From an uncultured Nitrososphaerota archaeon (GTDB lineage: Archaea > Thermoproteota > Nitrososphaeria > Nitrososphaerales > CADDZS01): a DNA stretch of 64,000 nt. This document shows positions 36,052 through 63,026 of the stretch, piece after piece. A program made the translations under genes and the position numbers. Each line of letters begins with the position of its first letter. Position 1 is the first letter of the stretch. The notes below the pieces were generated by a model. It made no database searches. It saw only the letters and a list, made by a program, of their open reading frames with translations, and had not been told where the DNA came from. The stretch covers positions 1,312,001 through 1,376,000 of the forward strand of contig CAWCYI010000004.1 of assembly GCA_963799845.1 (NCBI GenBank). Direction: 5' to 3'.

Positions 36052-36107
36052 TAATTTGTAAATTTATGCGGATCCCACATCTCACACTCGGGATTTAATA
36101 GTAAATT
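36052..36107 (+). repeat. Palindromic intergenic repeat family, copy A
   Basis: TAATTTGTAAATTTATGCGGATCCCACATCTCACACTCGGGATTTAATAGTAAATT; shares ATCCCACATCTC..ACTCGGGATT with copy F. Confidence 0.75.
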
Positions 36108-36161
36108 AGAGATGTTGGGATTTACCGTGTTATCAAGTACTTGGACTGATTTCGAATCATC

Positions 36162-36593
36162 TCAGTGGAGCGCGACGGGCTGTGCAGGCGAGGTGTCAGG
36201 CTCCACAACCACCGCGGTCCCGTACGCGAGAACCTCAGTCATCGATCCGCCCATTTCCGACGTGTCAAAGCCGACGGAGACGACCGCGTTTGCTCCTAGG
36301 CTCCTTGCGTGGTCGGCTAGCCGCTGTAGGGCTTGGTGGCGCACTTGTTCTAAGAGATTCGTGTACACCTTGATTTCCCCGCCACCCCAAGCCCTGAAGA
36401 AGGCAAAGATATTCTGCCCCAGCCCCCGCGACCGTACGATTAACCCAAACGTCGCACCAATCACCCGAGTCACGTGATACCCTGACACGAACGGCGTCGT
36501 AACGATGATCAGGTCAGTTGGCGGCTTGAATGGATCTTCGATAGCATCAGGAACCTTCATTCTATGATTACTCACTCTTCCGAGGGACTCCAA
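36162..36593 (-). CDS. YbjQ/UPF0145 family protein
   Basis: GLIVRSR, GGEIKVYT, LGANAVV, EVLAYGTAV. Confidence 0.9.
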   Translation of the reverse strand: MESLGRVSNHRMKVPDAIEDPFKPPTDLIIVTTPFVSGYHVTRVIGATFGLIVRSRGLGQNIFAFFRAWGGGEIKVYTNLLEQVRHQALQRLADHARSLGANAVVSVGFDTSEMGGSMTEVLAYGTAVVVEPDTSPAQPVALH

Positions 36594-36640
36594 GTTATAT
36601 ACATCTTCGAGGATTGCAAGATTTTCAATGCTGCATAATC

Positions 36641-36697
36641 TTGATAGTAAATTGGAGTTATGATCATCACCATCTCAGAACGTTCAGAATAATAGTA
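36641..36697 (+). repeat. Palindromic intergenic repeat family, degenerate copy B
   Basis: TTGATAGTAAATTGGAGTT..ATC..CACCATCTC...AATAGTA. Confidence 0.5.
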
Positions 36698-36727
36698 TGA
36701 TACTTTAGAGAAAATAATCGATTCTTA

Positions 36728-37132
36728 TTGTCTGTAAGTACAGGATTAAAAATCGGCTCGGTTGTCGTAGATTGCATTAATTTCGAAAGAATGCTAGAAT
36801 TCTGGCAGGAGGCTCTCCACTACGTCCCGAGACAGCCAGCGCAGGGCGACTGGGTAGTACTCGTTGATCCCGATGGAAGAAATACGAGCGTGTCCTTGAA
36901 TAGGGTCCTGCCTTCAGAAAAACTGACGGGGAGAAACTGGTTGCACTTCGATCTTTACACCAAAGACCGAGCGAGAGAAGTAAAGCGACTTCTCAAGCTT
37001 GGTGCTAGCCGTCATCCACAAGAGTACGATCCTGAAGATGATTTTATTGTTCTTGAGGATCCTGACGGCAATTTATTTTGCGTTGTACAGTTAGGGCGAA
37101 ATTTCAGAAATACTGATCCTATTGATAAATAG
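36728..37132 (+). CDS. VOC/glyoxalase family protein
   Basis: SVVVDC, FWQEAL, NWLHFDL, DPDGNLFCV. Confidence 0.88.
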   Translation: MSVSTGLKIGSVVVDCINFERMLEFWQEALHYVPRQPAQGDWVVLVDPDGRNTSVSLNRVLPSEKLTGRNWLHFDLYTKDRAREVKRLLKLGASRHPQEYDPEDDFIVLEDPDGNLFCVVQLGRNFRNTDPIDK

Positions 37133-37401
37133 AAGACGCCCTCACATTCTACACACAAGGATATGTCTGAATCCACTCCGTCTAGTATACGTAGACTCTT
37201 TTAGTCATAGCTTTTCACTTCCGGCCATATAGTGCCCGTGAGAGATCTTATGTTGAATATGCGTGGGGTGATTTTGATTCGGTTTTTCTAAGTTTTTTTC
37301 TGTTTCTGAAACTTTCAATGTCGGATATAGGCCCTTCGATTACTGATTTGGTGGATTAATAAACCGGGGTAGTTGTTTAATGGTCCAGTCGGGAAAAATC
37401 A

Positions 37402-38016
37402 ATGGAGCACCAAAATCAACCAGAATCAGATCCATTCCTGCCTCCGATAGAAAACCCGCCGGGGGTACGGATGAAGATCGCATACTATTTTACGCGACGC
37501 CAATTTGGCAAGGTTATCACTGGAGTCAAGGTTCACTCTGCGAGACTCCCACCCGCATTCGGCCAGTTCTATGCAAAGGTTCCCTCGCTGGACAAGAAAC
37601 TCCAGCTACCTAGGGAGACCGTCATGCTAATCCGCGATCAGGTCTCACGCCTAAACGTCTGCCTCTTTTGCATGGACAGCAACAGGTGGGCAGAGATCAA
37701 AGAGTCGATGAATGAAGCAAAATTCAATTCAATAGAAGAATACAGGACGAGCCCTCTTTTCACTGAAGCGGACCGCGCAGCTCTCGACTATGTCAGCGAA
37801 CTAACGAAGGAAAAGAAGGTAGATCCTAAAACCTTTGCACGGTTGTCCAAGTATTACTCCGACCGAGAGATCTGTGAGATTGTCTGGTTAGTTTCAAGCG
37901 AGCATCTCTACAATATGACCAACATTGGCCTGAACATTCACTCGGACATACTTTGCGACCTCGTCAGGAAAAGGAAGAGTGAGATTGCTTCAACGCAAAG
38001 GAGAAAAAAGAGTTGA
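37402..38016 (+). CDS. Carboxymuconolactone decarboxylase/AhpD-like protein
   Basis: VSRLNVCLFCMD, SPLFTEADRAALDY. Confidence 0.85.
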   Translation: MEHQNQPESDPFLPPIENPPGVRMKIAYYFTRRQFGKVITGVKVHSARLPPAFGQFYAKVPSLDKKLQLPRETVMLIRDQVSRLNVCLFCMDSNRWAEIKESMNEAKFNSIEEYRTSPLFTEADRAALDYVSELTKEKKVDPKTFARLSKYYSDREICEIVWLVSSEHLYNMTNIGLNIHSDILCDLVRKRKSEIASTQRRKKS

Positions 38017-38223
38017 GACTTGGAAGTAGCCACTCGGAAACAGAACGTATGAATATTTGAAAGATATCTGATAATATAGCGATAACCAGAGCAACTCAGG
38101 TGGAATTTTTCTCATTTTCTTCGTGCATTCTCTGGCCGCGCCCAGCAAAAGGACTCTAGGTCTGGGTGTTACTAGTGATTCCTATGACTATCCTTGAAAA
38201 GACAGAATGTAAAATCGAAGGAT

Positions 38224-39264
38224 ATGTATCAACAAAATGAGGTAATCTACATAGGAGCTGACGTTCACTAAAGAGAAACTCAGCTAGCAATCTTTGAACC
38301 AAGAGGCACTCTTCTGCAGGAGGAGAGAATTCTCACAAAGGATCTTCAAAGCTTCATTCAGTCTCTGCCGGCGAAGGAGAAACATCTAGCTCTAGAATCT
38401 GTTGGATTCATCTACCCGTTGTACGATAAGCTCAGACAGATTCCAAGGTGCGAGGTTGCAGTAGCAAATCCGAAGAGGCTGAGACGAGATTCCGGTTCGA
38501 AGCAAAAACATGACAGAATAGATGCAAAACTACTTGGGGATCAAATCAGGACCAACTACCTCAAGAGATCCTACATGCCTGAAGAAGAAACTAGGGAGAA
38601 GAGGTTTCTCATCAACGACAGGGTGAAGTACGGCCTCAGGAGGGCGGAGCTGAGAGGCTCGATACGATGGCTTCTGAAGAGGAGGGGAATCGTCGTTGAT
38701 AGTCCGTTTAGTGCAGAGGGAAGAAGGAAGCTCAAAGAAGAGATTTCCCTCCAGGAGATAGATATCAGATTGCAGGAACTCGAACTCGTGGAATCAATCA
38801 CTGAGAAGCTCGACCCGCAGATTTCTCTGATCGTCGCGCATGATGAAAAGGCAAAACTCATGGACACGTTGCCTGGCGTTGCACCCTACACGGCTCTTTT
38901 TCTTTCATCGGCTCTTGACAACATCGATAGATTCCCCGACTCGAAACATGCGTGCGCCTACTTGGGTCTCGTTCCTTCCCTGCACCAGTCAGGTGATGCA
39001 TCTTTCACAGGTCACATAACGAAGGATGGAAACAAGTTTCTCCGGAGGAATCTGATCGAGTGTGCGAGAGTAGCTGTCAGAAAGGATCCTCGCCTCAAAG
39101 AGTTCTATACCAAGTTAAGGCGTACGAGGGGTGAAAGGAAAGCTTTGATCGCTGTGGCAAGGAAGATGGTTTCGTACGCCTATTGGATGCTGAAGAGGAA
39201 TCGAACCTACGAAGAGCTGAGCTCCTTGGACGAATTTATGGAGACAACAATCATCTCCGTCTAG
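38224..39264 (+). pseudogene. IS110-family DEDD recombinase with in-frame TAA at codon 16 (38269-38271)
   Basis: YIGADVH*RET, ALES, KHDRIDA, LPGVAP, AYLGLVPSLHQSG, ITKDGNKFLRR, ALIAVARK. Confidence 0.88.
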
Positions 39265-39270
39265 TGAATA

Positions 39271-39367
39271 GGGAACGCGTTTCGTAGAGGCGAATTGTAA
39301 GGAAAATGGGGACCTCCCCGAATAGTTGAATGCCAGCCTCTCCAGAAAAAACGCTCGTGCAATTCCC
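39271..39367 (+). ncRNA. Predicted bridge/seek RNA in the 3' non-coding end of the IS
   Basis: Nested stems GGGAA/TTCCC, GCGTTT/AAACGC, AGAGGC/GCCTCT, GGGG/CCCC enclosing a 16+16 nt internal loop. Confidence 0.65.
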
Positions 39368-39434
39368 AGCTAAACTTAGATAGTCATAGTTAAATTCATG
39401 TCAGAGTCCGGTATTGTGTACAAATTTGCTCAGT

Positions 39435-40535
39435 TTAGATATAATTCAAATCATCAGTCATCATCAAGGGAATCCCTAGGTTATCTTCACTGGAACCAAA
39501 GAGCCAGCTGGACATGGCTTCGTAGCTCCCGATGACTTTCTTTCCAAAAGGTCCTTCAGCCAACCATGAGCCTTTCCAGCGAAAAATTCTGGCCTTGCCA
39601 CCAAGATTTTTTTCAAACCAGGAGTGGAGTTCGGAGAAAAGATATTCCACGTTCAGCGGCCGAATCGTTCCCTGCAGCGGCTCCTCTCGAAAGTTCATTT
39701 TAAGATCATCAACATACTTCATCATTTCAACATCGGATGGAAGGACATGCAATTCCACAAACTCTGCTACATAGTGCTCCGAAATTCTTGATAAACTGGA
39801 AACCACAGCTCTGCATGATCCTGCCCACTCGATTATTCTCACGAATCTCGGTTCTGCTATCAAACTATCAATGGATGCAACGACATACCCGACAGTTTTT
39901 CCTTGATGCTTTATTTCGAAAAGCTGGCGATCAGAATACCTGCGGAGATATCCGAGCGTGCGAAGGAAGACCGCCATTTGTGAAATATTTCTTGCGTATC
40001 TGATCGGTTCATTCTCGTGAATTTCTAAAAGCTCCGTCGCATGCGATTCTCTATCTTCTGGCTTTACAAGGATTGTTTGAAAACCGTCCGATGTGACATC
40101 TCCTCTAGTACCGCGTTCGAAAATTGCAACAATCATCCTTCCGACTGAGGAACACCCGATTCTTGTGTAGATGCTCTCGTCTCCAGAAACCAGCAGCAGT
40201 GAGACCGGTTCTTGTTCCAGATCCTTGACAATTTCTCCAATGATTCTCGAAGCTAGTTTTTCACCGCGATGCTCCGGCAGTGTCCAAACATTACCCAGGG
40301 ATGCCACGTGAATTTGCAGCCCATTCAACGAGCAAACGCTCTTGCATACACCAGCCGAGCTTATCGGATTTCCCTTTTCATCCTCGATATAGTAAAGATT
40401 CTTTGAATTATCCGCCGAGTAGAAAAGCGGAAAATCATCGAGCAGTCCCGGTTCATTGCAGGGCCTGAACACCGTGTCTCCGGTCTTTGCAAGGGTTTTC
40501 GAAAGTTCGGGAGTGGCGCGTTTTACTTCGTACAA
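39435..40535 (-). CDS. GNAT-family N-acetyltransferase (Eis-like N-terminal domain)
   Basis: VASLGNVWTLPEHRGEKLAS, LLLVSG..SIYTRIG. Confidence 0.8.
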   Translation of the reverse strand: MYEVKRATPELSKTLAKTGDTVFRPCNEPGLLDDFPLFYSADNSKNLYYIEDEKGNPISSAGVCKSVCSLNGLQIHVASLGNVWTLPEHRGEKLASRIIGEIVKDLEQEPVSLLLVSGDESIYTRIGCSSVGRMIVAIFERGTRGDVTSDGFQTILVKPEDRESHATELLEIHENEPIRYARNISQMAVFLRTLGYLRRYSDRQLFEIKHQGKTVGYVVASIDSLIAEPRFVRIIEWAGSCRAVVSSLSRISEHYVAEFVELHVLPSDVEMMKYVDDLKMNFREEPLQGTIRPLNVEYLFSELHSWFEKNLGGKARIFRWKGSWLAEGPFGKKVIGSYEAMSSWLFGSSEDNLGIPLMMTDDLNYI

Positions 40536-40567
40536 TCAATCCGCCACTCCACTGGCGAACTTAACTC

Positions 40568-42616
40568 CTACATAGTAAAAGTCCACGGAGCTGCGCTGCC
40601 GATATAGTGGTCGAGGAAGTATACCTCAGGGTCGGGCCGTCCCGTTCTTCCGTCTATCCTTGACGGCTGGTTCCACACCAGTCCCTGCTCAACGATGTTG
40701 TCCCACTCTTTCTTTGCGACTTCGAGCCACTTCCTGTCTCCAATCCGGTACCTGTATCCTGCCAGCCCGAAGACAAGGCGGGGCCACGAAGAGTACGACT
40801 GAACGCTCAGCTCCCAGATCTTCCCGTTTTCGTTAACGAGGTTCGGAGTGGCGTACTTGGATGCCTGCGCGTTCACCTTGTACTGCCACTCAAAGGCGGA
40901 ATCAATCTTATCTTTGGGTGCAATTGATTCGAGCTCAAGCACGTGCATCCACCACTCGCCAGTGAGCTGAGCCATGAACACGTATCCCGTTGGATCCGGA
41001 TCACCCCGCCATGCTTCGAAGTACCTTCCGTTGTAGAGATCTAGAAATGAACTTCTAGCCTTGGTCAAGAGTGCATTGTACCACTCTTGGTCCTTCGGAT
41101 TGTTCAAGATCTTTGCCGTTTCTCTTAGGGCGGTCAGGCATGCTACGAAAACAGATCCACAATAGCTGTCCTTTCCCTTGATTGCAGTTGCATCAAACCC
41201 CGCATCCGCCTGCCCCTCCGCATCTGGAATCCCGTCACCATCCTTGTCCTGCTTCAGGTCCCACTGCAGAGTCTTCAACATCGCGGGATACATCTCTCGG
41301 AGGAACTGGACGTCCTTCGTAAACTTGTAGTACCGGAACACGAGTAAGATGAATGACGGGCCCAGGTCCTTCCATCCCGGAGGCGAGGTCGTTCCGTCGG
41401 TTGCATGATCAAACGAGTTCAGTCCCAGGTCATGGGGAATGTACCCGTCCGGTCTCGCAGCTTTTGCAAGCAACCCGAGGAAGGTTTTCTCGAGCTGGGG
41501 GAACATGATAAGATGGGGGAGGGATCCGCCCTCGTGGCAAAATCCGGCAATTGTTCCGAGCATCGGGTCATTTTTGGTGGCCTCAAAAATTGCAAACCTC
41601 CCCTTTTCATCGAGCCATGTCGCCGCGAATAGTGTGTATGTAGTGTTGATTATGGCATCCTTCAACCAGTCCGGCAGGTCATTTTTTATGAGAGTTTTGT
41701 GCCACGCGCGGGATTGATCTCTGAGCCGGTCGTAGTTGGAGAGAAAGTGGCGCGCGAACTGTTCAGATCCGGTAAACTTGTTGTGGTAGTAGTGCCCGTA
41801 GGGATACAGCACGCAGCGCCCAGTAAAGTACCATGAAAAGACGTACTTCACTTCTTGCTCCTCCCGGTCATACCTGCAGACGATCACACCGGCAGGATCG
41901 TCCCACTGCCCTAAGACTTCATGAGGATCGTCGGTGGGGAGCGTTCCTCCCTTTGCAATTGACAGCCAGGGTTCCTCATTTTCAAATATGTACTTCCACA
42001 CTCTCTGGGAGATCGCGACACCCGGCGGCACGTTGAGGTTGTACTGCACGATTTTCTGAGACGGATTCTCCGCGATGAGGCACAGGTCTCCTTTCGCGCC
42101 GTCGTAATCGTTACACTGCCGGTTTACAAACGCGATACCACCCTCGACTGATTCATTCACCCTTCCGATCAGGTTCGTCCCGGTAATGTTTGAGACCGAG
42201 ACTGCGATCCTGCCGCTCTTGCTTCCCTTGACCCGCACGGATATTCCGAGAGCCGGCATCGAAGACTCGTCCAGGTTCCCCGGAATGAGTGACGAGAAGA
42301 CCTCCATCGTCGCTTCGATAGTTCCCTTCTTGGCTTTTAGAGTCGCAAACGGAAATTCTCCCCTGTACGACAGTTCGTCCGGTTCGTAATCGGAGAAGTT
42401 TTTCATTGGAAGAAATTTTTCAATGAAGAATGGCGCTCCGTCATCCGGAACCACAAACACGTGAAAAGCACGCATCTTCGGAGTCGGGCTCCCCCAGTTG
42501 TGTAAAATCGTAAGATTGGACATCTTGCCTTCGTTATCGATCTCTACCTTACCGGTTCCGATTCCGCCAAAGGGAACGCCGCCCTCTAGATTTGCGTTGG
42601 GTCCATATTCTACCAT
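40568..42616 (-). CDS. GH116 family glycoside hydrolase, paralog 2
   Basis: GVPFGGIGTGK, PHDLG, WKDL, DKDGDGIPD..GFD; collinear with 32508-34553. Confidence 0.88.
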   Translation of the reverse strand: MVEYGPNANLEGGVPFGGIGTGKVEIDNEGKMSNLTILHNWGSPTPKMRAFHVFVVPDDGAPFFIEKFLPMKNFSDYEPDELSYRGEFPFATLKAKKGTIEATMEVFSSLIPGNLDESSMPALGISVRVKGSKSGRIAVSVSNITGTNLIGRVNESVEGGIAFVNRQCNDYDGAKGDLCLIAENPSQKIVQYNLNVPPGVAISQRVWKYIFENEEPWLSIAKGGTLPTDDPHEVLGQWDDPAGVIVCRYDREEQEVKYVFSWYFTGRCVLYPYGHYYHNKFTGSEQFARHFLSNYDRLRDQSRAWHKTLIKNDLPDWLKDAIINTTYTLFAATWLDEKGRFAIFEATKNDPMLGTIAGFCHEGGSLPHLIMFPQLEKTFLGLLAKAARPDGYIPHDLGLNSFDHATDGTTSPPGWKDLGPSFILLVFRYYKFTKDVQFLREMYPAMLKTLQWDLKQDKDGDGIPDAEGQADAGFDATAIKGKDSYCGSVFVACLTALRETAKILNNPKDQEWYNALLTKARSSFLDLYNGRYFEAWRGDPDPTGYVFMAQLTGEWWMHVLELESIAPKDKIDSAFEWQYKVNAQASKYATPNLVNENGKIWELSVQSYSSWPRLVFGLAGYRYRIGDRKWLEVAKKEWDNIVEQGLVWNQPSRIDGRTGRPDPEVYFLDHYIGSAAPWTFTM

Positions 42617-42724
42617 GGAAATTCGGAATTTTGTCCAGAATTAAAACCATTTAGTAGAAGGTAGGATCTCGAGCTAGCCTTCCTCTAAACCAATATATCT
42701 CATCCTTCTGGGAAGGCTCACAAA

Positions 42725-43870
42725 TTGAAGATCAAGGACATTTCCGTTCATCTCGTGAACGCGGTCTGGAGAAATTTCATCATTGTGAAAGTGACCTCCG
42801 ATGACGGAATCATCGGTTATGGCGAGGGGACGCTTGCAGATTTTGAGAGAACCATCGAGGCGGCGGTCTACGATTACAAACCGTTCCTGATCGGGAAGGA
42901 AATCAACATCCCGGAGATTACCCAGTTCCTTTTCAGGCACTTTTACTGGCGCGGCGGACCAATGCTGATGAGCGCGATAAGCGCAATCGAGCAGGCGCTC
43001 TGGGATATTCTCGGCAAATCCGTAAACCGGCCAGTATATTCTCTTCTAGGGGGGAAAGCAAACAACAGAATTAGGGCATACGCGAACGGCTTTATCTCGG
43101 GCAGCGCGACTCCCGAGGAATTTGGATCGGCCGCCGCAAAAGTAGTGAAGGAAGGCTACAACGCCGTGAAGTTTGACCCCTTTGGCGCCGCAGGCCCCAG
43201 GATAACCAAGGAAGAAATGATAACCGCGATCTCGCGGATCGAGGCGATCAGAAATGCCGTCGGCGAAAACCCGGACATCCTGATCGAGGCGCACGGCCGC
43301 TTTGATTCTACTACCGCGATCAGCATCGCCGCCGAATTGAAACGATTCTCGCCGCTCTGGTTTGAGGAGCCGGTGCCGGAGGACGACATCACCTCCATGG
43401 CCGAAGTAAAGGCAAAGTCACCAGTTCCAATTGCAACCGGCGAAAGGATCGTCACGAAATACAGGTTCCAGGAGCTTCTTGCGGCGAGAGCGGCTGACAT
43501 CATCCAGCCTGACGTGTGTCACATGGGCGGTATCCGTGCCATAGAAGAGGTTGCTTCGATGGCGGAGGTCAACTACATCCCGGTTGCCCCGCACAACCCC
43601 AATGGCCCGGTAGCGACCGCCGCAACGCTCAACGCCCTAATTGCCATGCCGAACGCGCTGATAATCGAGTACTGGGTGGATGCGCAGAAGGTCAGGCGCG
43701 ATCTGATAAAGGAGTACTTCGACGTGCGGGACGGCTACATTTATCCTTCGAGCAAGCCAGGCCTGGGGATTGGGGTCAACGAATCCGCGCTTGATAGGTA
43801 CCCATACAAGAAGCTGCATCTAGAATATTTCGGGAACGATTACAAGTACCACGACACTCGGAGCAAGTGA
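42725..43870 (+). CDS. Galactonate dehydratase (DgoD)-like enolase-superfamily enzyme
   Basis: [50 protein letters not shown]. Confidence 0.85.
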
Positions 43871-44187
43871 ACTTTGGAAAATTAGGGCATTCCGGGCGTC
43901 GTTCCGCTTCTATATTCTTTTGGAGTCTTTAATTACAAGTTCTCATTGATTCATTAAGAAAAAAATTTTTCTGCGTTTCACACACGCGAGCACTTTTTGG
44001 CCGAAGAGATACGTTCGAGCTCTGTTCAATGCGTTCAGCTCGTTTCAAGATCTGTAAGCTCAGAAGAGCTCGTTTCAAGCTATTACACAGAGAGGGCCCC
44101 CTAGGGAAGCTCCGCATCCGCGCGTTTAGAGCTGGACGGAGCTTAGAAAGCTCGAAACGTTGGGTCTAAGTTGAAAAACGGGATAAA

Positions 44188-45003
44188 TCAGATCGTTTGC
44201 AGCTGGATTTCCTGCGGATCAGCCTTTCTGCTGATCAGCCGCCCGCCATCAACCACAATCGTGTTGCCCGTCATGAACGAGTTGTTGTCGCTCGCAAGGA
44301 ACGCGAGCAGCTTCGCCATCTCCGACGGCCTGCCCATCCGGCCGAGGACCGACGCGGCCCTCGAATCGAGACCCTCCGGCATCGGTTCGTCCTTGATGTA
44401 AAAGGGGCCGGGCAAAACCGCAATCGCCTGGATCCCGTAGCGGCCCAGATCCACCGCCATGCTCCGCACCATCGAGATCAAACCGCCTTTGCACGTGGCG
44501 TATGCGATAGACCGTTCGAGCGGAGACTTTGCCTGTATTGCGCTGATGATTATTATCTTCCCCTTCTTCTTCTCCGCAATCATCCGTCCCGCGGCCCATC
44601 TCGACAGCAGGAACGGCGCGGTGAGGAGCAGGCTGAGCATCCTGTCCCACTCTTCAAGCTCGACGTTCAGGATGTCGTACCGGGAATTTCTCGCCGCGTT
44701 GCTGATCAAAACGTCAACCGAGCCAAAATTTTTGTCGAGCCAGTTCACCAGATCAATCACGTCCTTCCGGTCTTCGAGATCCGCCCTGTGGAAAGTGATC
44801 CCCTTGGAGTTTGACTGGATTCGCAGGCCCCTCTCTTCATCCCTGCCCGTGATGAGAACTCGAGTCCCCAATTTTGCAAAAAGTTTCGCCGTAGCTTCAC
44901 CCAGTCCTCTGGTACCGCCGGTAATTACACAGGTCTTGTTTTCTAGGTTGTCAAAGATTCTCTCGTCGGTCAAACTGTTGTTCACGATAATTTTTGCATT
45001 CAC
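44188..45003 (-). CDS. Short-chain dehydrogenase/reductase
   Basis: [18 protein letters not shown]. Confidence 0.88.
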
Positions 45004-45047
45004 AGCCTTGATATATAAGAATCAAAAATGTTCGCAGATTATCCGCT

Positions 45048-49890: not shown

Positions 49891-49896
49891 TGGGTT

Positions 49897-53394: not shown

Positions 53395-53576
53395 CAAATA
53401 GAGAAGATTTGAATCATAGCCGCTAGGCTGAGATCCGATTTGCAGGAAGCCCCCAGAAGGGCTTCCCCTGCGAGCTCTGGTTGAACGCTTTGTCGATGAA
53501 GAGTAAGTCAATCACAGAGTAGAAGTGGAAAATATCAATGCTAAGTGCATCCAGTCAAGTAAAGATGGATGCCCTA

Positions 53577-54569: not shown

Positions 54570-54707
54570 CTTATCTATTGTGGACTAGCCCCAGGTCTTC
54601 TTAGCGAGTCTTTTCATGACTATCCAAGTCTTGTAATTATTACAGCCATCAGCACAACAGAATCGACCTGTTGACTGCGTTGTTTGATATTTATAATGAA
54701 TTAATAT

Positions 54708-55697
54708 TCATTCATTGATGACATATTGAAACATGTCGGCCACAGCTTTGTATAGATTGGGCGGATACTCCGCAATTCTTTGGCACATGTAGAGGAACCA
54801 TTCTCTTCCGTAAGGAAGGTACACTCGTGCCCGGAATCCGTCATCTTTCACTTTTTGCAAACGGTCTGGAGAAATTCCGTAGTTCATCTCGAATTCAACG
54901 GTTCCTTTGTCGACAGCGAGTTTTTTGCAAAGCTTTAGGGCGTATCCGATTATTGTTTGATCGTGTGTCGCGATTGAAACAGGGTGCCTGTTTTCGAGGA
55001 TCGTCTCGAGAAATCGACAATACTTGATTGTTAGTTCGTCGCTTTTGCGGTCGATCGCAACGTCCGGTGGTTCGCTATACGCACCCTTGACAAGTCGAAT
55101 TTTGCTTCGTTCTCGTCTTCGCATTATGGATTGAAGATCTTCTTCACTTCGGTTGAGATAAGCCTGGATCGTTATCCCGATGTTTGGAAACTCCCCAGAG
55201 AGCATGCGTTGAACTTCTAAGATTTCTGAAGTACGCTCCGACCACTCCATGTTCACTATGATCTCCACATCGTGATCAATCGCGGCCCTTCCGATTTTCC
55301 TCATGTTTTCCAGAGCTAGTTCCTTATCAATGGTCAAGCCGACGTGGGAGAGATCGAGCGAAACAGAAGAATTTAATCCGTGCTTTACGATCGTGTCAAT
55401 TACTGAAAGGAACTCGTCGGTTGTAGATTTTGCCAGATCCTCACTCCTCGTAGATTCTCCCATAAAGTCAATCGCCTGAAGGAAACCAAGATCTCTTAAC
55501 CTCTCTGCTACATGTAGACAATCGGACAACGTTTCACCACCTATGTAACGACGCGCAGCCCGAAGGGCCACATCATAAAGTCTAGTGTTCTGTAGAACGT
55601 AAGACTTTAGCTCTTCGTCCCGAGCGATATGACGCAGTGCCTCCGACATTTCGTCTGCCCAATCGGCGTCTCTTTCCATTTCGTCTTTTTCTTCCAT
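54708..55697 (-). CDS. Monofunctional proline dehydrogenase family
   Basis: RYIGGE, DFMGE, TIQAYL, RLVKGAY, IATHD, VYLPYG.EWF.Y..QRIAE. Confidence 0.88.
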   Translation of the reverse strand: MEEKDEMERDADWADEMSEALRHIARDEELKSYVLQNTRLYDVALRAARRYIGGETLSDCLHVAERLRDLGFLQAIDFMGESTRSEDLAKSTTDEFLSVIDTIVKHGLNSSVSLDLSHVGLTIDKELALENMRKIGRAAIDHDVEIIVNMEWSERTSEILEVQRMLSGEFPNIGITIQAYLNRSEEDLQSIMRRRERSKIRLVKGAYSEPPDVAIDRKSDELTIKYCRFLETILENRHPVSIATHDQTIIGYALKLCKKLAVDKGTVEFEMNYGISPDRLQKVKDDGFRARVYLPYGREWFLYMCQRIAEYPPNLYKAVADMFQYVINE

Positions 55698-55705
55698 ATT
55701 TCTCT

Positions 55706-56329
55706 CTATCCTATCTTGCTTTGTTGCGTGACTCGTGCCAACACCATTTGCTTAGCTTCCCTCAGAAGTTCATTCATCGACAAGGAGTGATTGATGAGGA
55801 GTTGCTGAGATGCTCCCGCCAGAATGCCGATAATTTCGTGTGCGATGAGATTTGAATTGAGTTCCTTACTAAAATCGCCTGTCTTCTTTCCGCCATCTAG
55901 AATCCGTGCCACAAAACGAATTGTCTGAGTCAACATTTGTCCTATTTCAGGGGAGAATAGTTTGTCATCTTCGAGCAATGTACGTTGAATGAACAAACAT
56001 ATTTCAGGATCCTGGACGAACAACTCTTGATAACAATCAAACAGTTTCTCCAGCTTATGAAATGAAGAGCTTTCTAAAGAAACAGGGTACAGTACTATTA
56101 GCTTCCATCGTACGCGAATAGTTTCGAGAATAGCATGGAATAGCTTTTCCTTGCTATCAAAATGCCAATAAATGGCACCTTTTGTGATGCCTGCAGCACC
56201 TGCAATATCATCTATGGATGTGCTTGCAAAACCGCGCCTTGCGAAGAGCTTGAGGCAACTAGCAAGTATCGCTTCCCTTGTTTCTGCGCTGTGTTTGGCC
56301 TTCAAGGAGATTGTTTTCGGTGGCCACAT
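55706..56329 (-). CDS. TetR/AcrR family transcriptional regulator
   Basis: LFARRGFASTSIDDIAGAAGITKGAIYWHFDSKEKL. Confidence 0.92.
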   Translation of the reverse strand: MWPPKTISLKAKHSAETREAILASCLKLFARRGFASTSIDDIAGAAGITKGAIYWHFDSKEKLFHAILETIRVRWKLIVLYPVSLESSSFHKLEKLFDCYQELFVQDPEICLFIQRTLLEDDKLFSPEIGQMLTQTIRFVARILDGGKKTGDFSKELNSNLIAHEIIGILAGASQQLLINHSLSMNELLREAKQMVLARVTQQSKIG

Positions 56330-56660
56330 ACCGACCGTTTAGTATATTTCTCCGATTATAAGAGTTTGCCCACAATTCATCAACAATTGTTGGCAATGTT
56401 AACAGGTAATGGAATGCGATGATGAATCCGTACTAAAGAAATGGATACTTAACTGGAAGACTTGATTGAGTTCTATATTATCCGAGTATTGAATGGGATA
56501 GAGGCTGCGGCGTTAAACGAAAAAGATTCATGAAGATTGATGCGTGATCATTAAGCTGTATTCGTATTTTTTTACTTCCACCTCACGAGTATCGCCCCTC
56601 TCTCTTGAACTGTGAAATCGTCAGTTTTAAGAGGTCTATACGTACGAGTGTTGTGAGACT

Positions 56661-57305
56661 TCAGATTGCTTGAGGAGTCTGTTTCGAAGACGAGTGCATA
56701 CTTTCATGAACGCACTCCATTGCTCCCCTGGCAATTGATTGCTTCAAAGTTATACTTGGTCTGTCGAGTACCTTACCAAGGAAAGCAGTGTGAAACGTAT
56801 CGCATGTCAGTTCTGGATACTTGGTGGCTAATTTAGCAAATGGACAGTTCTTGCTAATGATCAGATCTTTGCTTCTTTCTCTCCTCAATTGGGGCTGGAA
56901 ACCCAAGTCACTCAGGACCGGGAGAAGAGAGTCCGCATTTTCTCGCCTGCCTACATTCTCTGTGAGCATCCTGGCAGCAGAAGCAAAAATGGCCTTCGTC
57001 TTTTCGGCACCTATGTCCTCTATCATAGCCGCCGTTATGAGATCGAGGATGAGATCATATTTGGCAGAGATTCTACCTCGTCCTTCGAGGGTTATAGAAT
57101 AATACTTGCTAGGCCGTCCACTGCCCGTGTTTCTGAAAGAGGAGTCAACCAATTTGTCTGCCACCATATCTTCAAGATGCCTCCTGACTACACTGAGATT
57201 CATGCCAATCTTAGATGCAAGGTCTTCAGCTGTTGTCTCTCCGCCTAGGAGAAGTACAAGTATGCAATATTTTGTTTGGCCAAGCGGAGAACGCACCTCA
57301 ATCAA
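56661..57305 (-). CDS. SufR-like ArsR-fold HTH regulator with C-terminal Cys ligands
   Basis: VVRRHLEDM, GRPSKYY, KNCPF..TCD..H, MEC. Confidence 0.8.
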   Translation of the reverse strand: MIEVRSPLGQTKYCILVLLLGGETTAEDLASKIGMNLSVVRRHLEDMVADKLVDSSFRNTGSGRPSKYYSITLEGRGRISAKYDLILDLITAAMIEDIGAEKTKAIFASAARMLTENVGRRENADSLLPVLSDLGFQPQLRRERSKDLIISKNCPFAKLATKYPELTCDTFHTAFLGKVLDRPSITLKQSIARGAMECVHESMHSSSKQTPQAI

Positions 57306-57401
57306 GAAATGTAGTGGTTTACCGAGTAAAAAGCATTGAGAGGCTTGTGTGGGTTTTATGCCATAATAACATTTAATAGGTCTGGATTTTTAATGCAACT
57401 T

Positions 57402-57811
57402 ATGACAGAGCCTAGTCTATTCGAACGTCTGGGTGGAGTATACGCAATCGCGGCTGTTGTGGATCGCTTCAGTGACCAACTTTTGAAAAATCCGAAGATC
57501 GTTAATTCAAACCCCGAACTGAAAAAGTGGCACACTGAAGAGTACAAAACTCGGTTGCCTTGTCTAAAAGTTCGGGCGGACATTGTGGATGTGCTCGGTT
57601 GCAGGCGGGCCATACCAATACACGGGTAAGCCCCTATCCGAAGCCCATTTCGCATTTCACATCCCACCAGAAGTATTCGATGGTTTCGGCCGAGCTCGGA
57701 CTCGCACTTGATTATTTCAAGGTGCCCAAGCGCGAAAAGGAGGAAGCCTTGGCTGCCTTCAATGCGCAAAAGCGCGATGTGACTTCTGGTGCCAGGCCCA
57801 CGACGGCATAG
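57402..57811 (+). CDS. Group I truncated hemoglobin, two frameshifts (near 57570 and 57680)
   Basis: SLFERLGG..AIAAVVD; middle frame AGGPYQYTGKPLSEAH; last frame ALDYFKVPKREKEE. Confidence 0.8.
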
Positions 57812-57862
57812 TGAACTTTTGACGACCTAAATCGGTACTGAGGAACAGAAACGAAGGTTCCC

Positions 57863-58192
57863 TTGGCGATCGACCTCAGTTGGCTTCTCGGTGCGGTCCT
57901 CGACTCGATCATTCCCTTCCTCGAGCTAGTGGCAGCTTTTGTTATTCTCGGTGGTGGCGTTTGGACTCTTATGATCTTCGTGCGCCGCCACGATGCCGCG
58001 CAAGCGAGGCATGAGTTCAGTCACGCTCTTCTCTTAGGCTTGGATTTCACAATTGGCGCAGATATGTTGAAACTCACCGTGGCACCTGACCTCTCGGCGG
58101 CTGCCTTGGCCGCAGGAGTTACGGCAGTCCGTATCGCCCTAACACTGACACTCCTTAGGGAGCAGCGTCAAGCGATTTCAGAAAACAAATAA
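57863..58192 (+). CDS. DUF1622 family membrane protein
   Basis: ALLLGLDFTIGADML, VRIALT..L.RE. Confidence 0.8.
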   Translation: MAIDLSWLLGAVLDSIIPFLELVAAFVILGGGVWTLMIFVRRHDAAQARHEFSHALLLGLDFTIGADMLKLTVAPDLSAAALAAGVTAVRIALTLTLLREQRQAISENK

Positions 58193-58215
58193 CTGATGTG
58201 GTCTGGTTCAAAACA

Positions 58216-58533
58216 ATGACAAACGAATTCGTGAAGATCGCTGAGATTTCCGAGATTCCTCAAGGGACGACCAAAATTGTGAATGTAGCAGGAGTTGAAT
58301 TATTTGTAGCGAATGTCGAGGGATCATTTTACGCTCTGCCTAACAAATGCACTCATGTTGGCGGACTGCTGGGAAGAGGGAAGCTTTCTGGTAACATCAT
58401 TCAGTGTCCTTGGCACGGATCGAAATTTGATGTGAAGACTGGGGCAGTCGTTGCCGGCCCTGCACAAAGCCCAGAACCAACTTACGAGGTGAGGGTGGAA
58501 GGGTCAAGCGTCTTCGTGAAAAAACCGACCTGA
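58216..58533 (+). CDS. Rieske-type [2Fe-2S] ferredoxin
   Basis: CTH...CPWHGSKFD. Confidence 0.9.
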   Translation: MTNEFVKIAEISEIPQGTTKIVNVAGVELFVANVEGSFYALPNKCTHVGGLLGRGKLSGNIIQCPWHGSKFDVKTGAVVAGPAQSPEPTYEVRVEGSSVFVKKPT

Positions 58534-58678
58534 CTTCAGTTCCTTCAGGCACGCTGTCTAAAATTTCGAATTTCATATAATTCACTGAGGAAACCAGACA
58601 CAACGACTAAAATATGACGCATAACACCTATTCCCAAAGTTCTTCGGGATAAGCTATATCCTCAGACTCGAGCCTTAA

Positions 58679-59146
58679 TTGGTGATGGTAAGGACTATGA
58701 GTTTCAGAGTAGATCACAATGAACCAATATCTGATCTCTTGACAAGATTAACAGAGGAACATGGAGAAATCAATCGAAAGCTCGAGAGGATCTCAGAAAT
58801 CTCTGCCAAAAATGACGGAGACTTGAAACTGGCAGTCAGTTTGCTGAATGCTGTGAGTACCGAGATACTTCGGCACGCTGTCGAGGAAGAGGCTAGGCTT
58901 GCACGCGTAATAATGGAATCAGATGTAACGCGTGAATCTTCAGACGAGTCAGTAAAAATTCTTCAGGAGCACAGGCGCATTAAGGAGTTTTTCGACGATG
59001 AATTGCCGTACATCTTAGATGAGAATTCTGAGAAACAAGCAAGAAAGAAAATCATCGAGTTTACCGATTTGGTAATTAGACACCATAAGGAAGAAGAGAA
59101 AGAGCTATTCCCTCTTTCTTTGAGAGCGGCAGCATCAAACGGGTAG
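58679..59146 (+). CDS. Hemerythrin-like HHE cation-binding protein
   Basis: EEH, RHAVEEE, QEH, HHKEEE..LFP. Confidence 0.85.
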   Translation: MVMVRTMSFRVDHNEPISDLLTRLTEEHGEINRKLERISEISAKNDGDLKLAVSLLNAVSTEILRHAVEEEARLARVIMESDVTRESSDESVKILQEHRRIKEFFDDELPYILDENSEKQARKKIIEFTDLVIRHHKEEEKELFPLSLRAAASNG

Positions 59147-59158
59147 CGTGGTGCCTGT

Positions 59159-59554
59159 TTGGAGAAGACTGTTTCAAAGATCATTCCTTTATCAGAAGAA
59201 AGCTCGCACAGTCATCCCAGAAGCAAGCAAGAAACTCTTCCAACAGCAGAATCTATCCATCTTGTCAAATTGGCAAGCTATGAAGATGATGCAATCGTCA
59301 GCAGGACGCTGATTAATCGTAAATCTGGAACTATTACGATGTTCGCATTTGATCAGGGGCAAGGTTTGAGCGAACACACTTCACCATTCGATGCTTTTGT
59401 ACAGATTCTGGAAGGCAGCTCCGAGATTACCATTTCAGGAAAGCACTTTCCGGCGAGTGAAGGCGAAGTCGTGATCTTACCTGCAAATCAACCTCATGCA
59501 CTGAGTGCACTTTCTAAATTCAAAATGCTTCTAACCCTGATCCATTCTGAATAA
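59159..59554 (+). CDS. Cupin domain protein
   Basis: FAFDQGQGLSEHT.PFDA, PANQPHAL. Confidence 0.9.
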   Translation: MEKTVSKIIPLSEESSHSHPRSKQETLPTAESIHLVKLASYEDDAIVSRTLINRKSGTITMFAFDQGQGLSEHTSPFDAFVQILEGSSEITISGKHFPASEGEVVILPANQPHALSALSKFKMLLTLIHSE

Positions 59555-59560
59555 TCTGAG

Positions 59561-59953
59561 TTGCAAAAATGGAAAAGCTCTATTACCGCGGAGGACGGAG
59601 TCGCTTTTGTGACCGCAACGATTTGCTACTTTGACTCCCCTCCAAAAAACGAATTCTTTGTATTCTTCAAAGGGACATTGCTACCAATACTAGTGCGATA
59701 TGGTGCTCCATGTCTTGCTACTTTTGTCACCGAATCCAGCCCCAATAACTATCCAAGACTAGCAGTGAGAGAAGGAGAATACGTGTTTGTCTGGTTCAGC
59801 TTATTTACAAACGGAACATCTTACGAGAATCACATTCGAGCTTTGGAAGAAAGTTCTGACTGGTTAAAGATCCAGGTTCAACTTAAGGAATTCTTGATCA
59901 AGCCGGTAGAGATCTTGAAGCTTTCACCGACTCCGCGTTCAAAGCTAATCTAA
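59561..59953 (+). pseudogene. C-terminal half of a NIPSNAP-like protein
   Basis: FVTE.SPNNYPRLAVREGEYVFVWF, LSPTPRS; N-terminal domain absent. Confidence 0.6.
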
Positions 59954-59961
59954 CTCTAATG

Positions 59962-60006
59962 CTATTAGTAAATACGTGCGCGAATCCCGTACCTCGCATG
60001 ATCTTT
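59962..60006 (+). repeat. Palindromic intergenic repeat family, partial copy D
   Basis: CTATTAGTAAATACGTGCGCGAATCCCGTACCTCGC. Confidence 0.5.
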
Positions 60007-60040
60007 ACGTTTCATCTTTCAAAAATTCTATGAATTGACG

Positions 60041-60109
60041 TGTATTTTTACTAGTTAATTGGTGCGGAAGTCCCACATTCCGCGTACGAGATTTACTAGT
60101 AAGACCAAA
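60041..60109 (+). repeat. Palindromic repeat family, copy E
   Basis: 59/69 ungapped identity to copy H by manual alignment. Confidence 0.9.
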
Positions 60110-60339
60110 TCTTTGCGTCAGTATTTTGTGATTTCCGCGATTAACCAATCTTGTTCTTCGTGAGACAGTTATTGTTACTGTTTCGCCAATATTTACCAAT
60201 TGACGTGAAAAGTGTTGTAGTGCTCGTCTCACTTCACTCGAGGAGAGATTAGTTCTTTCTTCATACCAGTATCCGAATCCCATACATAACTTGAATTAAT
60301 CAGCAACCTAAAACGGTCGCACATTGATTTTCAAACGAC

Positions 60340-61113
60340 CTAGGGACGTTTCTTTATTCCGGCAGTACGGCCACCGTCTACGGCTATCGTGACGCCGGTC
60401 ACATATGACGCCTCGTCAGAAGCCAGGAAAGCTGCTACGGCCGCAATCTCTTTTGGTTCAGCAAGTCTCCCCATAGGCACTATACCTATCCATGCCTCCC
60501 TTTCCGCAGGAGTCATTGAAGCCTCCATGAATGATTTGAGCAGCGGAGTTGCAGTACCTCCGGGACAGATGCAATTTGCCCTAACATTCTTGGAGCCAAA
60601 GTCCTGGGCGACCGATTTTGTCAGAGCTATGATCCCGGCCTTTGATACTTCATAGGCGGTCTGGCTCACGGGCCCAGCTTCAATTCCCGAAGCGGAACCT
60701 GTGTTGATGATGGATCCGCCGCCACCGTTAATCATAACGGGAATTGCATACTTGCACCCAAGGAAGTAACTCTTCAGGTTTACGCGCATCACGCTGTCCC
60801 AATCTTCAAGAGATGTTTCCACGCAAGTACCTACGGGATTGATTCCGACATTGTTCATAAGAATATCGAGCTTCCCGTACTTCTGAACTGTATCAGCGAT
60901 CATATGATCCACTTCTCTGACCGATGTTACATCAGTATGAACATATCCCGCTCTTTTACCATGATTTGTAATATCTTCCACTACCTTGAGCCCAGCTTCA
61001 TCATTGATGTCAGCAATTACCACCGTCGCACCCTCGACAGCAAATTTGTGTGCGCAGGCTGTGCCGATTCCCGAAGATCCGCCAGTGATGATTGCTATTT
61101 TGCCAGTTAACAT
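60340..61113 (-). CDS. Short-chain dehydrogenase/reductase
   Basis: TGGSSGIG, NNVG, YEVSK, ICPG, AVDGG. Confidence 0.92.
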   Translation of the reverse strand: MLTGKIAIITGGSSGIGTACAHKFAVEGATVVIADINDEAGLKVVEDITNHGKRAGYVHTDVTSVREVDHMIADTVQKYGKLDILMNNVGINPVGTCVETSLEDWDSVMRVNLKSYFLGCKYAIPVMINGGGGSIINTGSASGIEAGPVSQTAYEVSKAGIIALTKSVAQDFGSKNVRANCICPGGTATPLLKSFMEASMTPAEREAWIGIVPMGRLAEPKEIAAVAAFLASDEASYVTGVTIAVDGGRTAGIKKRP

Positions 61114-61299
61114 GATGTCTGTGCATTACGCGGCTCTTTAAAAAATAAATCCCGTGTAAAGCCCGATTCCGTGAAGAGTCTTCGTTCCGACCCAAGATTC
61201 ACTGCTTTCTTGAAAAGACTGGACTCGAAGCTTAGTAAAGGGGTATCAAAACGCTCGATTGCTCCAAAATGCGAACCTTTGCTCTTTGCCTATTTGCAC

Positions 61300-61360
61300 A
61301 TTTTTACTAGTAAATTGGGGTTCAAATCCCACATCTCGTACTCGGGATTACGGCAAACCA
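61300..61360 (+). repeat. Palindromic intergenic repeat family, copy F
   Basis: ATTTTTACTAGTAAATTGGGGTTCAAATCCCACAT identical (35 nt) to 62961-62995. Confidence 0.9.
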
Positions 61361-61523
61361 GAATGGCAAAGACCATTAGTCATGAATCTTCCAATAAATA
61401 TCGCTACTGCGATGTGATCATGGTACCGAGTTTAATACCCTAAAATATCCACGTAAGCAACGGATAGATCCCTAGAATGGAGTTTTACATCCGAAATTCA
61501 AAATTTGAAGAGATAAGATTTCG

Positions 61524-61832
61524 ATGATGAACGAAGGTTATAGGCTATGCTCGGGATGCAATAGGGAGATAATGGTCTCATCCAGAGGTTTGTTTCTACC
61601 TCATAAAAACAAGAAAAAGAAAATTGTTTGTCCTATGTCTAGCAAAGCGCCTAATTATGACATATGTGATTTATGCGGAAAGAAAATTGCAAATCCTGAC
61701 AATAAAACAAGATATTGTTCAGAAGACTGTGAGAAAAGAGATTCTCGTCGTTCCTTAATGCCTGTTAATCAGGAGATCTCCAAAAGAAAAATCAAGGCGT
61801 TAAAATTTTCAAACCCTCTTTACTTTGACTGA
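61524..61832 (+). CDS. Small basic zinc-finger protein
   Basis: CSGC..H..C and CDLCG..YCSEDC; AT-rich. Confidence 0.55.
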   Translation: MMNEGYRLCSGCNREIMVSSRGLFLPHKNKKKKIVCPMSSKAPNYDICDLCGKKIANPDNKTRYCSEDCEKRDSRRSLMPVNQEISKRKIKALKFSNPLYFD

Positions 61833-61879
61833 GGGCTAAAGTCGTGGAGTAGGCCGGATTCTAACCTACTTCGATTCGA

Positions 61880-61936
61880 TATTTTACCAGTAAATTCGCG
61901 CTCTAATTTAGCCAAAAGTGGCGGGATTAGTAAAAA
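61880..61936 (+). repeat. Palindromic intergenic repeat family, degenerate copy G
   Basis: TATTTTACCAGTAAATT...GGGATTAGTAAAA. Confidence 0.65.
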
Positions 61937-62219
61937 GTGCTCTGAACTCGATATACGAAGTATCACGTTCGCTTGCTTCTTAGTCTTAAAATCGAGTCCC
62001 TAGATAATCGGACTTAGCGCCGCAGACTTTCTGGCTCGTACCTTCGATAGGCTTCGTAGTTTCGACGCTGGGAGTTAGTACGGCATGAATCTTACTCGCT
62101 TGAAGAAGTGCAGAATATCCTCGCTTGAGGAATTTCAGTAGTCAATATTCTTCTCTTAAAGCAGCGAAGGATATAATCAAAAAAATTGAAGAAGAGGCTC
62201 CAGCAAAGCCGGTGATATT

Positions 62220-62798
62220 ATGAGAAAAATTTTCTTGTATATGACAATGACCTTCGATGGTTGCATTTCAGCACCTAATGGGGAACTTGACTGGTTTGAC
62301 CCATCAAAAGCAGACAAAGAGATGCATGATGACATAATAGGGATAGTTAGCAGTGCTGACAGCTGGATGATGGGATATCCGACAGGTCCAGGCCTGATAG
62401 CTTACTGGAAAAATGTTGAGAACGAGGGAAGGGCTGACAAATGGGAAATGGAAATTGCCACGGCGGTAAACAAGTTACGAATAATCATAATTTCAAACAA
62501 ACCAGAAAAGTCCGTAAATAGTGCAGAACTTATCGTAGCAAAAAATGACAAGGAGCTAGTCGATGCGGTCATGAAAATAAAACAGAGCAACGGGGGCGAC
62601 ATATACGTACCTGGTGGTGTGCGCACCGCGCAGAACTTCTCAAGGGTTGGACTGATAGATGAATACATCATAATGGTGCATCCGGTCGCAATAGGAGAAG
62701 GCAAGCACCTGTTTACGAACGAGAAAAAACTAGAGCTGATGAACGTAAAGCCGTACAAATCTGGGGTAGTGCAGATGCGCTACCGTCCTCGAAGCTAG
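62220..62798 (+). CDS. Dihydrofolate reductase-like (RibD C-terminal) family protein
   Basis: MTFDGCI, DIYVPGG, GLIDEY, HPVAIGEGKHLF, SGVVQMRY. Confidence 0.9.
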   Translation: MRKIFLYMTMTFDGCISAPNGELDWFDPSKADKEMHDDIIGIVSSADSWMMGYPTGPGLIAYWKNVENEGRADKWEMEIATAVNKLRIIIISNKPEKSVNSAELIVAKNDKELVDAVMKIKQSNGGDIYVPGGVRTAQNFSRVGLIDEYIIMVHPVAIGEGKHLFTNEKKLELMNVKPYKSGVVQMRYRPRS

Positions 62799-62957
62799 TT
62801 ACCTTGTTGCAGTGTTCGCAACCGCAACCAATCCACTTCGGCATCATGTTCAACAGAGCGGAGGCATCTCCCATGAAGACCTGTCCGATAAAGATCGGTA
62901 GTGGCGTGTATCGATAGTCCGCTATTGAGCACATCTCTTGAAGATTTACAATCGGGT

Positions 62958-63026
62958 TGTATTTTTACTAGTAAATTGGGGTTCAAATCCCACATTCCGC
63001 CTATGGGATTTACTAGTAAAACCAAA
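62958..63026 (+). repeat. Palindromic intergenic repeat family, copy H (most intact)
   Basis: TTTTACTAGTAAAT-TGGGGTTCAAAT-CCCA-11 nt-TGGG-ATTTACTAGTAAAA. Confidence 0.9.

Follow-up and report, generated by a model that had tools for sequence, protein, structure and literature searches.

To our knowledge, no system other than the integron is well described as a store of single genes behind recombination sites, and we know of archaeal integrons only with canonical attC sites and the integrase IntI. In bacteria, Xer-exploiting elements and pdif modules have short Xer-recombinase sites that bracket gene modules moving between replicons; these sites are mimics of dif (11-6-11), and their orientation alternates. 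Integrons and clusters of attC sites lacking an integrase (CALINs) are reported in Archaea in the available part of 10.1101/2022.02.06.479319. Archaeal elements that target tRNA genes, as presented in the accessible text of PMC6563490 and PMC8371274, use the 3′ part of the tRNA, short direct repeats and an integrase by the tRNA, and they stack; thaumarchaeal attachment (att) repeats are short, with a median of 17 bp (PMC6563490, same text). We analysed a stretch of 64,000 nucleotides (the window) from an uncultured Nitrososphaerota archaeon (assembly GCA_963799845.1, contig CAWCYI010000004.1, positions 1,312,001 to 1,376,000, forward strand), which carries a family of short palindrome-bearing repeats between accessory genes. 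These repeats are likely to be att sites of archaeal integrative elements that recombine with tRNA 3′ ends, mostly of Leu-like class II tRNAs, and the site arrays of the window's genome would derive from them. The original prediction, made from the DNA letters, had proposed recombination sites that delimit accessory-gene modules, which was right in kind, and a system of undescribed kind, which was not: att sites of tRNA-integrating elements with a Xer-like integrase, found in relatives and in Bathyarchaeia, are an already known class. What is new is the conserved design of palindrome, tRNA mimic and palindrome across archaeal phyla, the cassette-like expansion of arrays in one soil lineage and the homing of IS110 elements to the palindrome.

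The window's genome (G000) comprises 4.6 Mb on nine contigs, with 47% G+C, a completeness of 87% and a contamination rating of 4.9%. A site profile made from three copies of the window was taken through one iteration across the whole genome with nhmmer; this genome-wide scan, which the original prediction had proposed, gives 66 non-overlapping matches at E<=0.01, 53 at E<=1e-4 and 39 at E<=1e-8. The aligned copies read as a palindrome of 12-14 bp (often longer, ATTTACTAGTAAAT), two bases plus a variable 5-10 nt, an invariant TCCCA(C) and about 12 nt ending in GCAC. This core resembles the T-loop and T-stem (T-arm) and the 3′ acceptor strand of a tRNA; the tRNAs of G000 read GTGGGTTCAAATCCCAC followed by the acceptor strand. 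A second palindrome is present in 22 of the 53 sites, while 27 have one palindrome and four have none. The distance between the two palindromes is 45 bp in 13 of these 22 sites and, through an insertion, 61-62 bp in five. Many sites have further partial units before or after them, and the junctions are thus short tandem runs of palindrome plus core. In a second class of G000 sites (six copies), the core is identical in 17/17 positions to the 3′ end of the genome's own tRNA at C7:113855-113947. As this class follows another tRNA, the palindrome is the constant arm and the core the part that tracks the target tRNA. The left and right variants around the invariant TCCCAC occur, by a rough classing, in all four combinations, the outcome that exchange at TCCCAC would give.

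The same design is found in other archaea. One genome per prokaryotic species was scanned for the exact pattern, whose 19 fixed bases would let a handful of matches arise by chance; palindrome plus core is found on 44 contigs, 43 of them archaeal. By record title these belong to Bathyarchaeia, Nitrososphaerales/Thaumarchaeota, Thermoplasmatota, Methanomethylicia, Micrarchaeota, Promethearchaeota, ANME-1, Methanothrix and Terraquivivens. At most of these loci the core reads as a true tRNA 3′ end, for example AAATCCCACCCCCCGCAC. In 3/44 loci ARAGORN calls an intact tRNA-Leu that lies 2.1-3.8 kb upstream of the site and is co-oriented with it. At L011, an 18-bp direct repeat joins the end of the tRNA-Leu to the site 2.07 kb away; L021 has a direct repeat too, and its site copies the host's own tRNA-Leu acceptor sequence, which differs from that of L011. 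With a model (R1) of palindrome and core that uses sequence only, full-length matches are scattered over several other families of the order, and G000 has at least 39 matches compared with at most 12 in each of 12 family relatives (tallies across relatives include the unpublished genome G001, on which no specific claim depends). Most weak R1 matches, which cover only model positions 18-49, fall on genuine tRNA ends and so reveal what it is that the core imitates. A site of tRNA end plus palindrome marks a widespread family of archaeal integrative elements, and the conserved palindrome offers a simple sequence tag for finding the elements and their integration arrays in metagenomes.

Five loci, L069 (G043:C3, Bathyarchaeia) and L080 (G003:C98), L083, L084 and L085 from three families of Nitrososphaerales, have one layout: an intact class II Leu-like tRNA, 1-3 nt, the palindrome, an open reading frame (ORF) of about 175 amino acids and a tyrosine integrase of 321-334 amino acids. 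In G003, which belongs to the window's own genus, an intron-bearing Leu-like tRNA ending in CCA is followed by one base, the palindrome, a 174-aa ORF and a 321-aa integrase (L080). This integrase has a PF00589 domain (1e-28) and SAM-like N-terminal domains. The nearest NCBIfam model of the element integrase is archaeal XerA (168 bits, cut-off 220); on the integron-integrase model it scores 50.8 bits (cut-off 265). The 174-aa protein has no family match. Integrase relatives of at least 50% identity occur in 4 of 151 genomes of the order, and the three loci looked at (G011:C18, G094:C79 and G132:C23) all show tRNA, 2-3 nt, palindrome, ORF of about 175 aa and integrase. L069 and L080 share 63.5% amino-acid identity in the integrase and 74% in the ORF of about 175 aa, which suggests transfer of the element between Nitrososphaerales and Bathyarchaeia. 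The far ends of the elements are recognisable: the 5.46-kb element of L069 ends with the palindrome and, 9 nt further on, a direct repeat (20 bp) of the end of the tRNA, and the 7.1-kb element of L083 (G011:C18) ends with palindrome plus core carrying a direct repeat of about 17 bp of the tRNA end. With a palindrome at each end of the element, the excised attP would be palindrome, tRNA piece and palindrome, with an implied distance of about 42 nt between palindrome starts as compared to 45 nt in the intact copies of the window. The tRNA-Leu genes of G000 have no palindrome behind them; the palindrome is thus a part of the element rather than of the tRNA locus. Co-oriented arrays are found from Bathyarchaeia to Nitrososphaerales. 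In the Bathyarchaeon G045, a site directly after tRNA-Leu is followed by three more co-oriented sites over 15.7 kb, and G048:C16 has four to five co-oriented sites inside 5.4 kb. Integrase remnants are present in L014 and L067, as detected with a profile contaminated by one non-integrase ORF of G045.

The targeted Leu-like tRNA of G003 (L080:6681-6818, - strand) appears to have two introns at non-canonical positions, and ARAGORN misses the targeted tRNA or misnames its isotype in four loci. The name Leu for the intron-bearing tRNAs is accordingly based on the long variable arm and an acceptor sequence common with intron-less tRNA-Leu. Bathyarchaeia have a further, distinct tyrosine integrase of 398-434 aa at L011:322-1518 and L016:5538-6842, whose N-terminus is an IS1-like zinc ribbon; it ends 50-100 nt from the site, leaves remnants in L014, L019 and L031 and has no relative in G000. 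It was considered as the palindrome's own integrase and is now read as probably belonging to another element family on the same tRNA-Leu core, stacked beside the first.

In the mechanism that we propose, the element would bear TTTACTAGTAAA at both ends, and its attP would consist of palindrome, a copy of about 30 nt of the tRNA T-arm and 3′ acceptor, and palindrome. Integration by the Xer-like tyrosine integrase would restore the tRNA with the palindrome just behind it (attL) and leave, at the far end, the palindrome with a piece of the tRNA (attR). When integration is repeated, in the tRNA or, as seems plausible for array growth, in an att copy already present, arrays of one direction would arise, each junction being a unit of palindrome, tRNA piece and palindrome. 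The palindromes may serve as binding arm or operator for a protein of the element. In G000, integration or later exchange between sites would have left more than 50 sites around integrase-less modules of 0.7-5 kb, and an integrase supplied in trans could excise, reinsert and shuffle modules between direct sites, as in integrons. As compared to the archaeal tRNA-targeting elements described so far, with which the tRNA 3′ part, the short direct repeats, the integrase by the tRNA and the stacking are shared, two features differ: the tRNA piece is framed by a strictly conserved palindrome that recurs in many phyla, and one lineage has more than 50 sites away from tRNAs, around integrase-less single-gene modules. 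The accessible text of PMC6563490 and PMC8371274, supplementary att tables aside, describes neither a conserved terminal palindrome nor integrase-less single-gene arrays. A literature string search for TTACTAGTAA gave no archaeal paper by title among the matches listed.

In the window, the palindrome TTTACTAGTAAA occurs seven times with at most one mismatch (0.08 expected; 0/100 shuffles reach seven). The features are given below, with positions counted from the first letter of the window.

36052-36120, + strand: site A, with a degenerate first palindrome, a tRNA-like core and the second palindrome TTTAATAGTAAA at 36094-36105 (nhmmer 36055-36109, E 1.1e-10; palindrome match)
36641-36665, + strand: doubtful partial copy, half a palindrome and a few bases, found by reading and missed by nhmmer
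38165-38177, + strand: left half of an interrupted site, a palindrome remnant in which GTTACTAGT abuts the end of an insertion sequence (IS)
38178-39391, + strand: IS110-family IS inside the palindrome, with 11-bp terminal inverted repeats and a transposase at 38419-39264 (Pfam Transposase_20, DEDD_Tnp_IS110)
39392-39412, + strand: right half of the interrupted site, TAAATT and then a degenerate core
59962-59998, + strand: partial site of the second class, a palindrome-like stretch and core; 59982-59998 matches a tRNA 3′ end in 17/17 positions (G000 tRNA C7:113855-113947)
60041-60108, + strand: complete site, tRNA-like core between palindromes at 60047 and 60092 (nhmmer E 1.2e-17)
60340-61113, - strand: module gene, short-chain dehydrogenase (Pfam adh_short_C2, 4e-69; no match in 12 family relatives)
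61300-61350, + strand: site with first palindrome at 61303-61314 and core, the second palindrome being lost (nhmmer E 8e-15)
61524-61832, + strand: module gene, small zinc-finger protein that recurs in relatives beside different neighbours
61880-61907, + strand: partial site, palindrome TTTACCAGTAAA at 61883-61894 and degenerate core; homology with G003 and with a metagenome contig (run X5) breaks here
62220-62798, + strand: module gene, RibD_C/dihydrofolate-reductase-like (Pfam RibD_C, 1.4e-17)
62958-63026, + strand: complete site H, T-arm-like core between palindromes at 62964 and 63009 (nhmmer E 5e-18)

About eight copies in one orientation had been predicted. Four of them are strong matches, all on the + strand (36055-36109, 60035-60112, 61294-61362 and 62952-63028; nhmmer, E 1e-10 to 5e-18); 59962 (E 1.6e-4) and 61880 (E 3.4e-3) are partial copies, both values coming from a small database, 38165/39391 is a remnant split by the IS110 element, and 36641, without an nhmmer match, is doubtful. 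The identities given for the best copies are reproduced on recalculation (59/69 between 60041 and 62958; an exact 35-mer in common to 61300 and 62958), as is the 45-bp distance within the pairs 60047/60092 and 62964/63009. The restriction of the copies to the two accessory tracts also holds: all seven palindromes lie there, and outside the strong copies the site profile matches nothing else in the window.

Across G000 the sites are clustered and oriented. The 53 sites fall in 18 of 92 bins of 50 kb, and the palindrome itself occurs 40 times exactly and 79 times with one mismatch, 68 of these 79 within 100 bp of a profile match. Site spacing ranges from 38 bp to 35 kb, with 22/39 neighbour gaps below 4 kb. 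A small mobile unit of 65-130 bp, either a miniature inverted-repeat transposable element (MITE) or a repetitive extragenic palindrome (REP)-like element, with the palindromes as terminal repeats and a transposase elsewhere, would account for the high copy number (66 matches), for the intergenic location (47/53 site midpoints lie outside ORFs of at least 100 aa), for the hairpin potential described below and for the IS630, IS110 and DDE transposases inside the islands. REPs and the mosaic elements built from them (BIMEs), which go with REP-associated tyrosine transposases (RAYTs), are likewise imperfect palindromes that abound between genes and are often hit by IS110-family elements. However, orientation is not random, 36 of 39 neighbouring pairs (<=40 kb apart) being co-oriented irrespective of the strand of the genes, the cores copy tRNA 3′ ends (17/17 to the genome's own tRNA in the second class), and in other genomes the co-oriented arrays are anchored at tRNA genes and adjoin an integrase. 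The two Y1_Tnp (IS200/RAYT-type) genes of G000 (C4:750843 and C6:729242) are far from the sites (the nearest site is 15 kb off), no RAYT lies beside a site, and no target-site duplications were noticed in the flank alignments. We regard the MITE/REP explanation, which the original prediction had kept as an alternative, as very unlikely. The orientation flips from - to + across two short stretches of G000, C6:947-961 kb and C4:1952-1957 kb, which contain IS110, IS630-like and DDE insertion sequences together with ABC transporter genes, and no integrase; inversion between repeated elements is a possible cause. Stretches of C7 (approximately 9981-14050) and C8 (approximately 2569-6638) have 4,071 bp in common at 99.9% identity, site included, and may represent a recent duplication or assembly redundancy.

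Folded as single-stranded DNA, copy H reaches -11.7 kcal/mol (z -4.3; 0/200 shuffles match), in line with the predicted hairpin. Four of five copies have z-scores of -4.3 to -7.0, and the copy without a second palindrome has -0.9. The inner stem (columns 17-22 with 37-42 of alignment A2) pairs in 63% of cells, a value equalled by 71/500 shuffles, and its covariation score is reached by 58/500; as covariation does not exceed the shuffles, we claim no structural covariation. Since two palindrome copies pair by necessity and the inner stem lacks covariation, use of the folded strand may be considered a possibility. These data also bear on the proposal that the palindromes are operator or terminator sites, or that the unit encodes a small tRNA-like RNA acting on neighbouring transcripts. 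DNA-binding proteins that act as dimers typically have a perfect palindrome of 12-14 bp as their target, the core resembles a T-arm, and in the integrase-bearing elements the palindrome lies directly upstream of the TATA-like box of the ORF-integrase pair. In G000, however, flanking genes are on either strand and at no fixed distance from the site, nor is there a fixed orientation to them; Rfam 15 at gathering score and ARAGORN give no match and no tRNA in the window, RNAalifold finds no consensus structure in 28 sites from other phyla, and the shuffles equal the inner stem as described. A regulatory or RNA role as the whole explanation is therefore highly improbable, and the reading as att sites is retained. 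The palindrome was also considered as an origin-recognition box or rolling-circle nick site; both were dropped, no supporting context being found.

The modules between the sites of G000 measure 0.7-5 kb and have no recombinase among their genes, which include YbjQ, glyoxalase, short-chain dehydrogenases, zinc-finger, RibD_C, ABC transporter parts, methyltransferases, NIPSNAP and NHL. Homology breaks at the sites. The zinc-finger module 61302-61884 (site, gene and next palindrome) has a 93% identical counterpart in G003, where the flanks to the left and right are unrelated, and the gene occurs in five further relatives with 75-93% identity in other contexts. A metagenome contig of another study covers 61480-61898, with unmatched ends starting at 61344, directly behind the core, and at 61898, directly behind the palindrome that follows. 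A paralogous block, 59607-59990 and C7:21832-22215 (99% identity), stops sharply inside the core, directly after GAATCCCGT. Such breakpoints inside sites are indirect evidence for recombination at the sites of G000. Strand exchange would take place in or next to the T-loop/TCCCAC, because tRNA identity and the homology breaks begin there.

In their co-oriented imperfect-palindrome sites, less than 4 kb apart and separating small accessory genes, the arrays resemble integrons and CALINs as described in the available part of the archaeal report; most clusters there likewise have no adjacent integrase, and the recombinase is of the Xer-like tyrosine branch. IS110-family elements target the sites, a parallel to IS1111 elements at integron attC. 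Unlike in integrons, the core is a copy of a tRNA 3′ end and the module genes are on either strand. By reading, neither the attC R'' box (RYYYAAC) nor the R' box (GTTRRRY) is present at the aligned site ends; no IntI lies beside the arrays of G000, none of its three PF00589 matches is near an array, and no attI is found. The sites also differ from pdif in mimicking a tRNA end and in being co-oriented. The earlier distinction from attC, dif and CRISPR thus stands, the gaps of 38 bp to 35 kb included, as does the statement that the window holds no recombinase. Exchange of modules as cassettes and present-day mobility in G000 are conceivable. An integron-independent cassette platform in soil Nitrososphaerales is a tentative proposal that we hold less probable than its contrary. 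Its sites, derived from the attP of a tRNA-Leu-integrating element, would have diverged from the tRNA so far as to recombine mostly among themselves, and a Xer-like integrase brought in by visiting elements would act on them in trans, perhaps as an attC-like folded strand, to excise, capture and shuffle single-gene modules. If modules are exchanged, cassette-style capture of genes would have a second route of independent evolutionary origin, which would also explain how accessory islands are assembled in large-genome terrestrial relatives of ammonia oxidisers.

Several observations weigh against the reading of the G000 repeats as att sites. In this genome, 87% complete, neither the Xer-like integrase nor the ORF of about 175 aa has a homologue, the three PF00589 matches are all far from any site, and G004 and G007 (12 R1 matches each) have no PF00589 match at all. 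No G000 array starts at a tRNA, and no G000 tRNA precedes a palindrome. The dominant core type, CCCACATYYCGCAC, matches no tRNA found in the assembly. Among non-IS duplicates of at least 85% identity in G000, one end lies in a site in 3/3 and both ends in 0/3. Contigs from four sequencing runs, which stop at sites as expected for repeats, contain no excision joint, and viral contigs contain no episomal copy, no site and no integrase relative. Finally, the scan demanded an exact palindrome, and its conservation across phyla is thus partly built into the search. A joint 59990->62954 was considered as an excision product and rejected, as it carries the letters of the C7 paralogue. The recombinase that the original prediction had suggested looking for is present as a Xer-like integrase in the five loci of other genomes; in G000 no cognate one is found, nor a serine recombinase (no match to PF00239) nor a Y1 gene near a site.

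Part of this evidence would suit the view that the sites are inert scars of ancient tandem integrations that decayed to one or two genes, the cassette appearance being a by-product of deletion. A cognate integrase is lacking in G000, G004 and G007, many sites are partial (one palindrome in 27/53, none in 4/53), recent duplicates have a single site boundary, and excision joints are not seen. Inert remnants would, however, hardly keep both palindromes in 22/53 sites at a fixed spacing of 45 bp, nor show all four combinations of left and right variants. Two genera and several metagenome bins have conserved the derived core of G000 even though it no longer matches a tRNA, and the zinc-finger module retains its sites in three genomes with different neighbours. 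We consider inert scars rather unlikely, although less so than the MITE/REP explanation. Orientation, one of the points on which the original prediction had said it could fail, is not random, and another, a fixed distance to genes, is not observed.

IS110/IS1111 elements home to REP or attC sites, and insertions into the palindrome are a parallel case. IS110-family elements sit exactly inside the palindrome, with no target duplication, at C6:903.70-904.89, C6:961.38-962.57 and C4:1954.61-1957.75 kb and at 38178-39391 of the window. At the left junction, ...TTTACTAG is followed by GTGACATG, and at the right junction, ...GACATGGGAG is followed by TAAAT. The copies belong to two lineages: the three other G000 copies form one, and the IS of the window stands apart, its transposase having an identity of about 27-39% with the other IS110-family copies in the comparison. 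In the palindrome-directed IS110 elements, nature provides an example of programmable insertion into the site of a mobile element.

A 17-member paralogous family of adenylate/guanylate cyclase domains fused to TPR or alpha/beta hydrolase domains is concentrated in the site-bearing islands of G000 (for example L005:7132-9144, L004:6655-8610 and L009:3092-4435). One of the IS110 copies has its transposase gene split by a nested reverse transcriptase/maturase of the group II intron type (RVT_1 3e-38, GIIM 5e-14), at L002:10596-11792 (G000 C4:1955.6-1956.8 kb).

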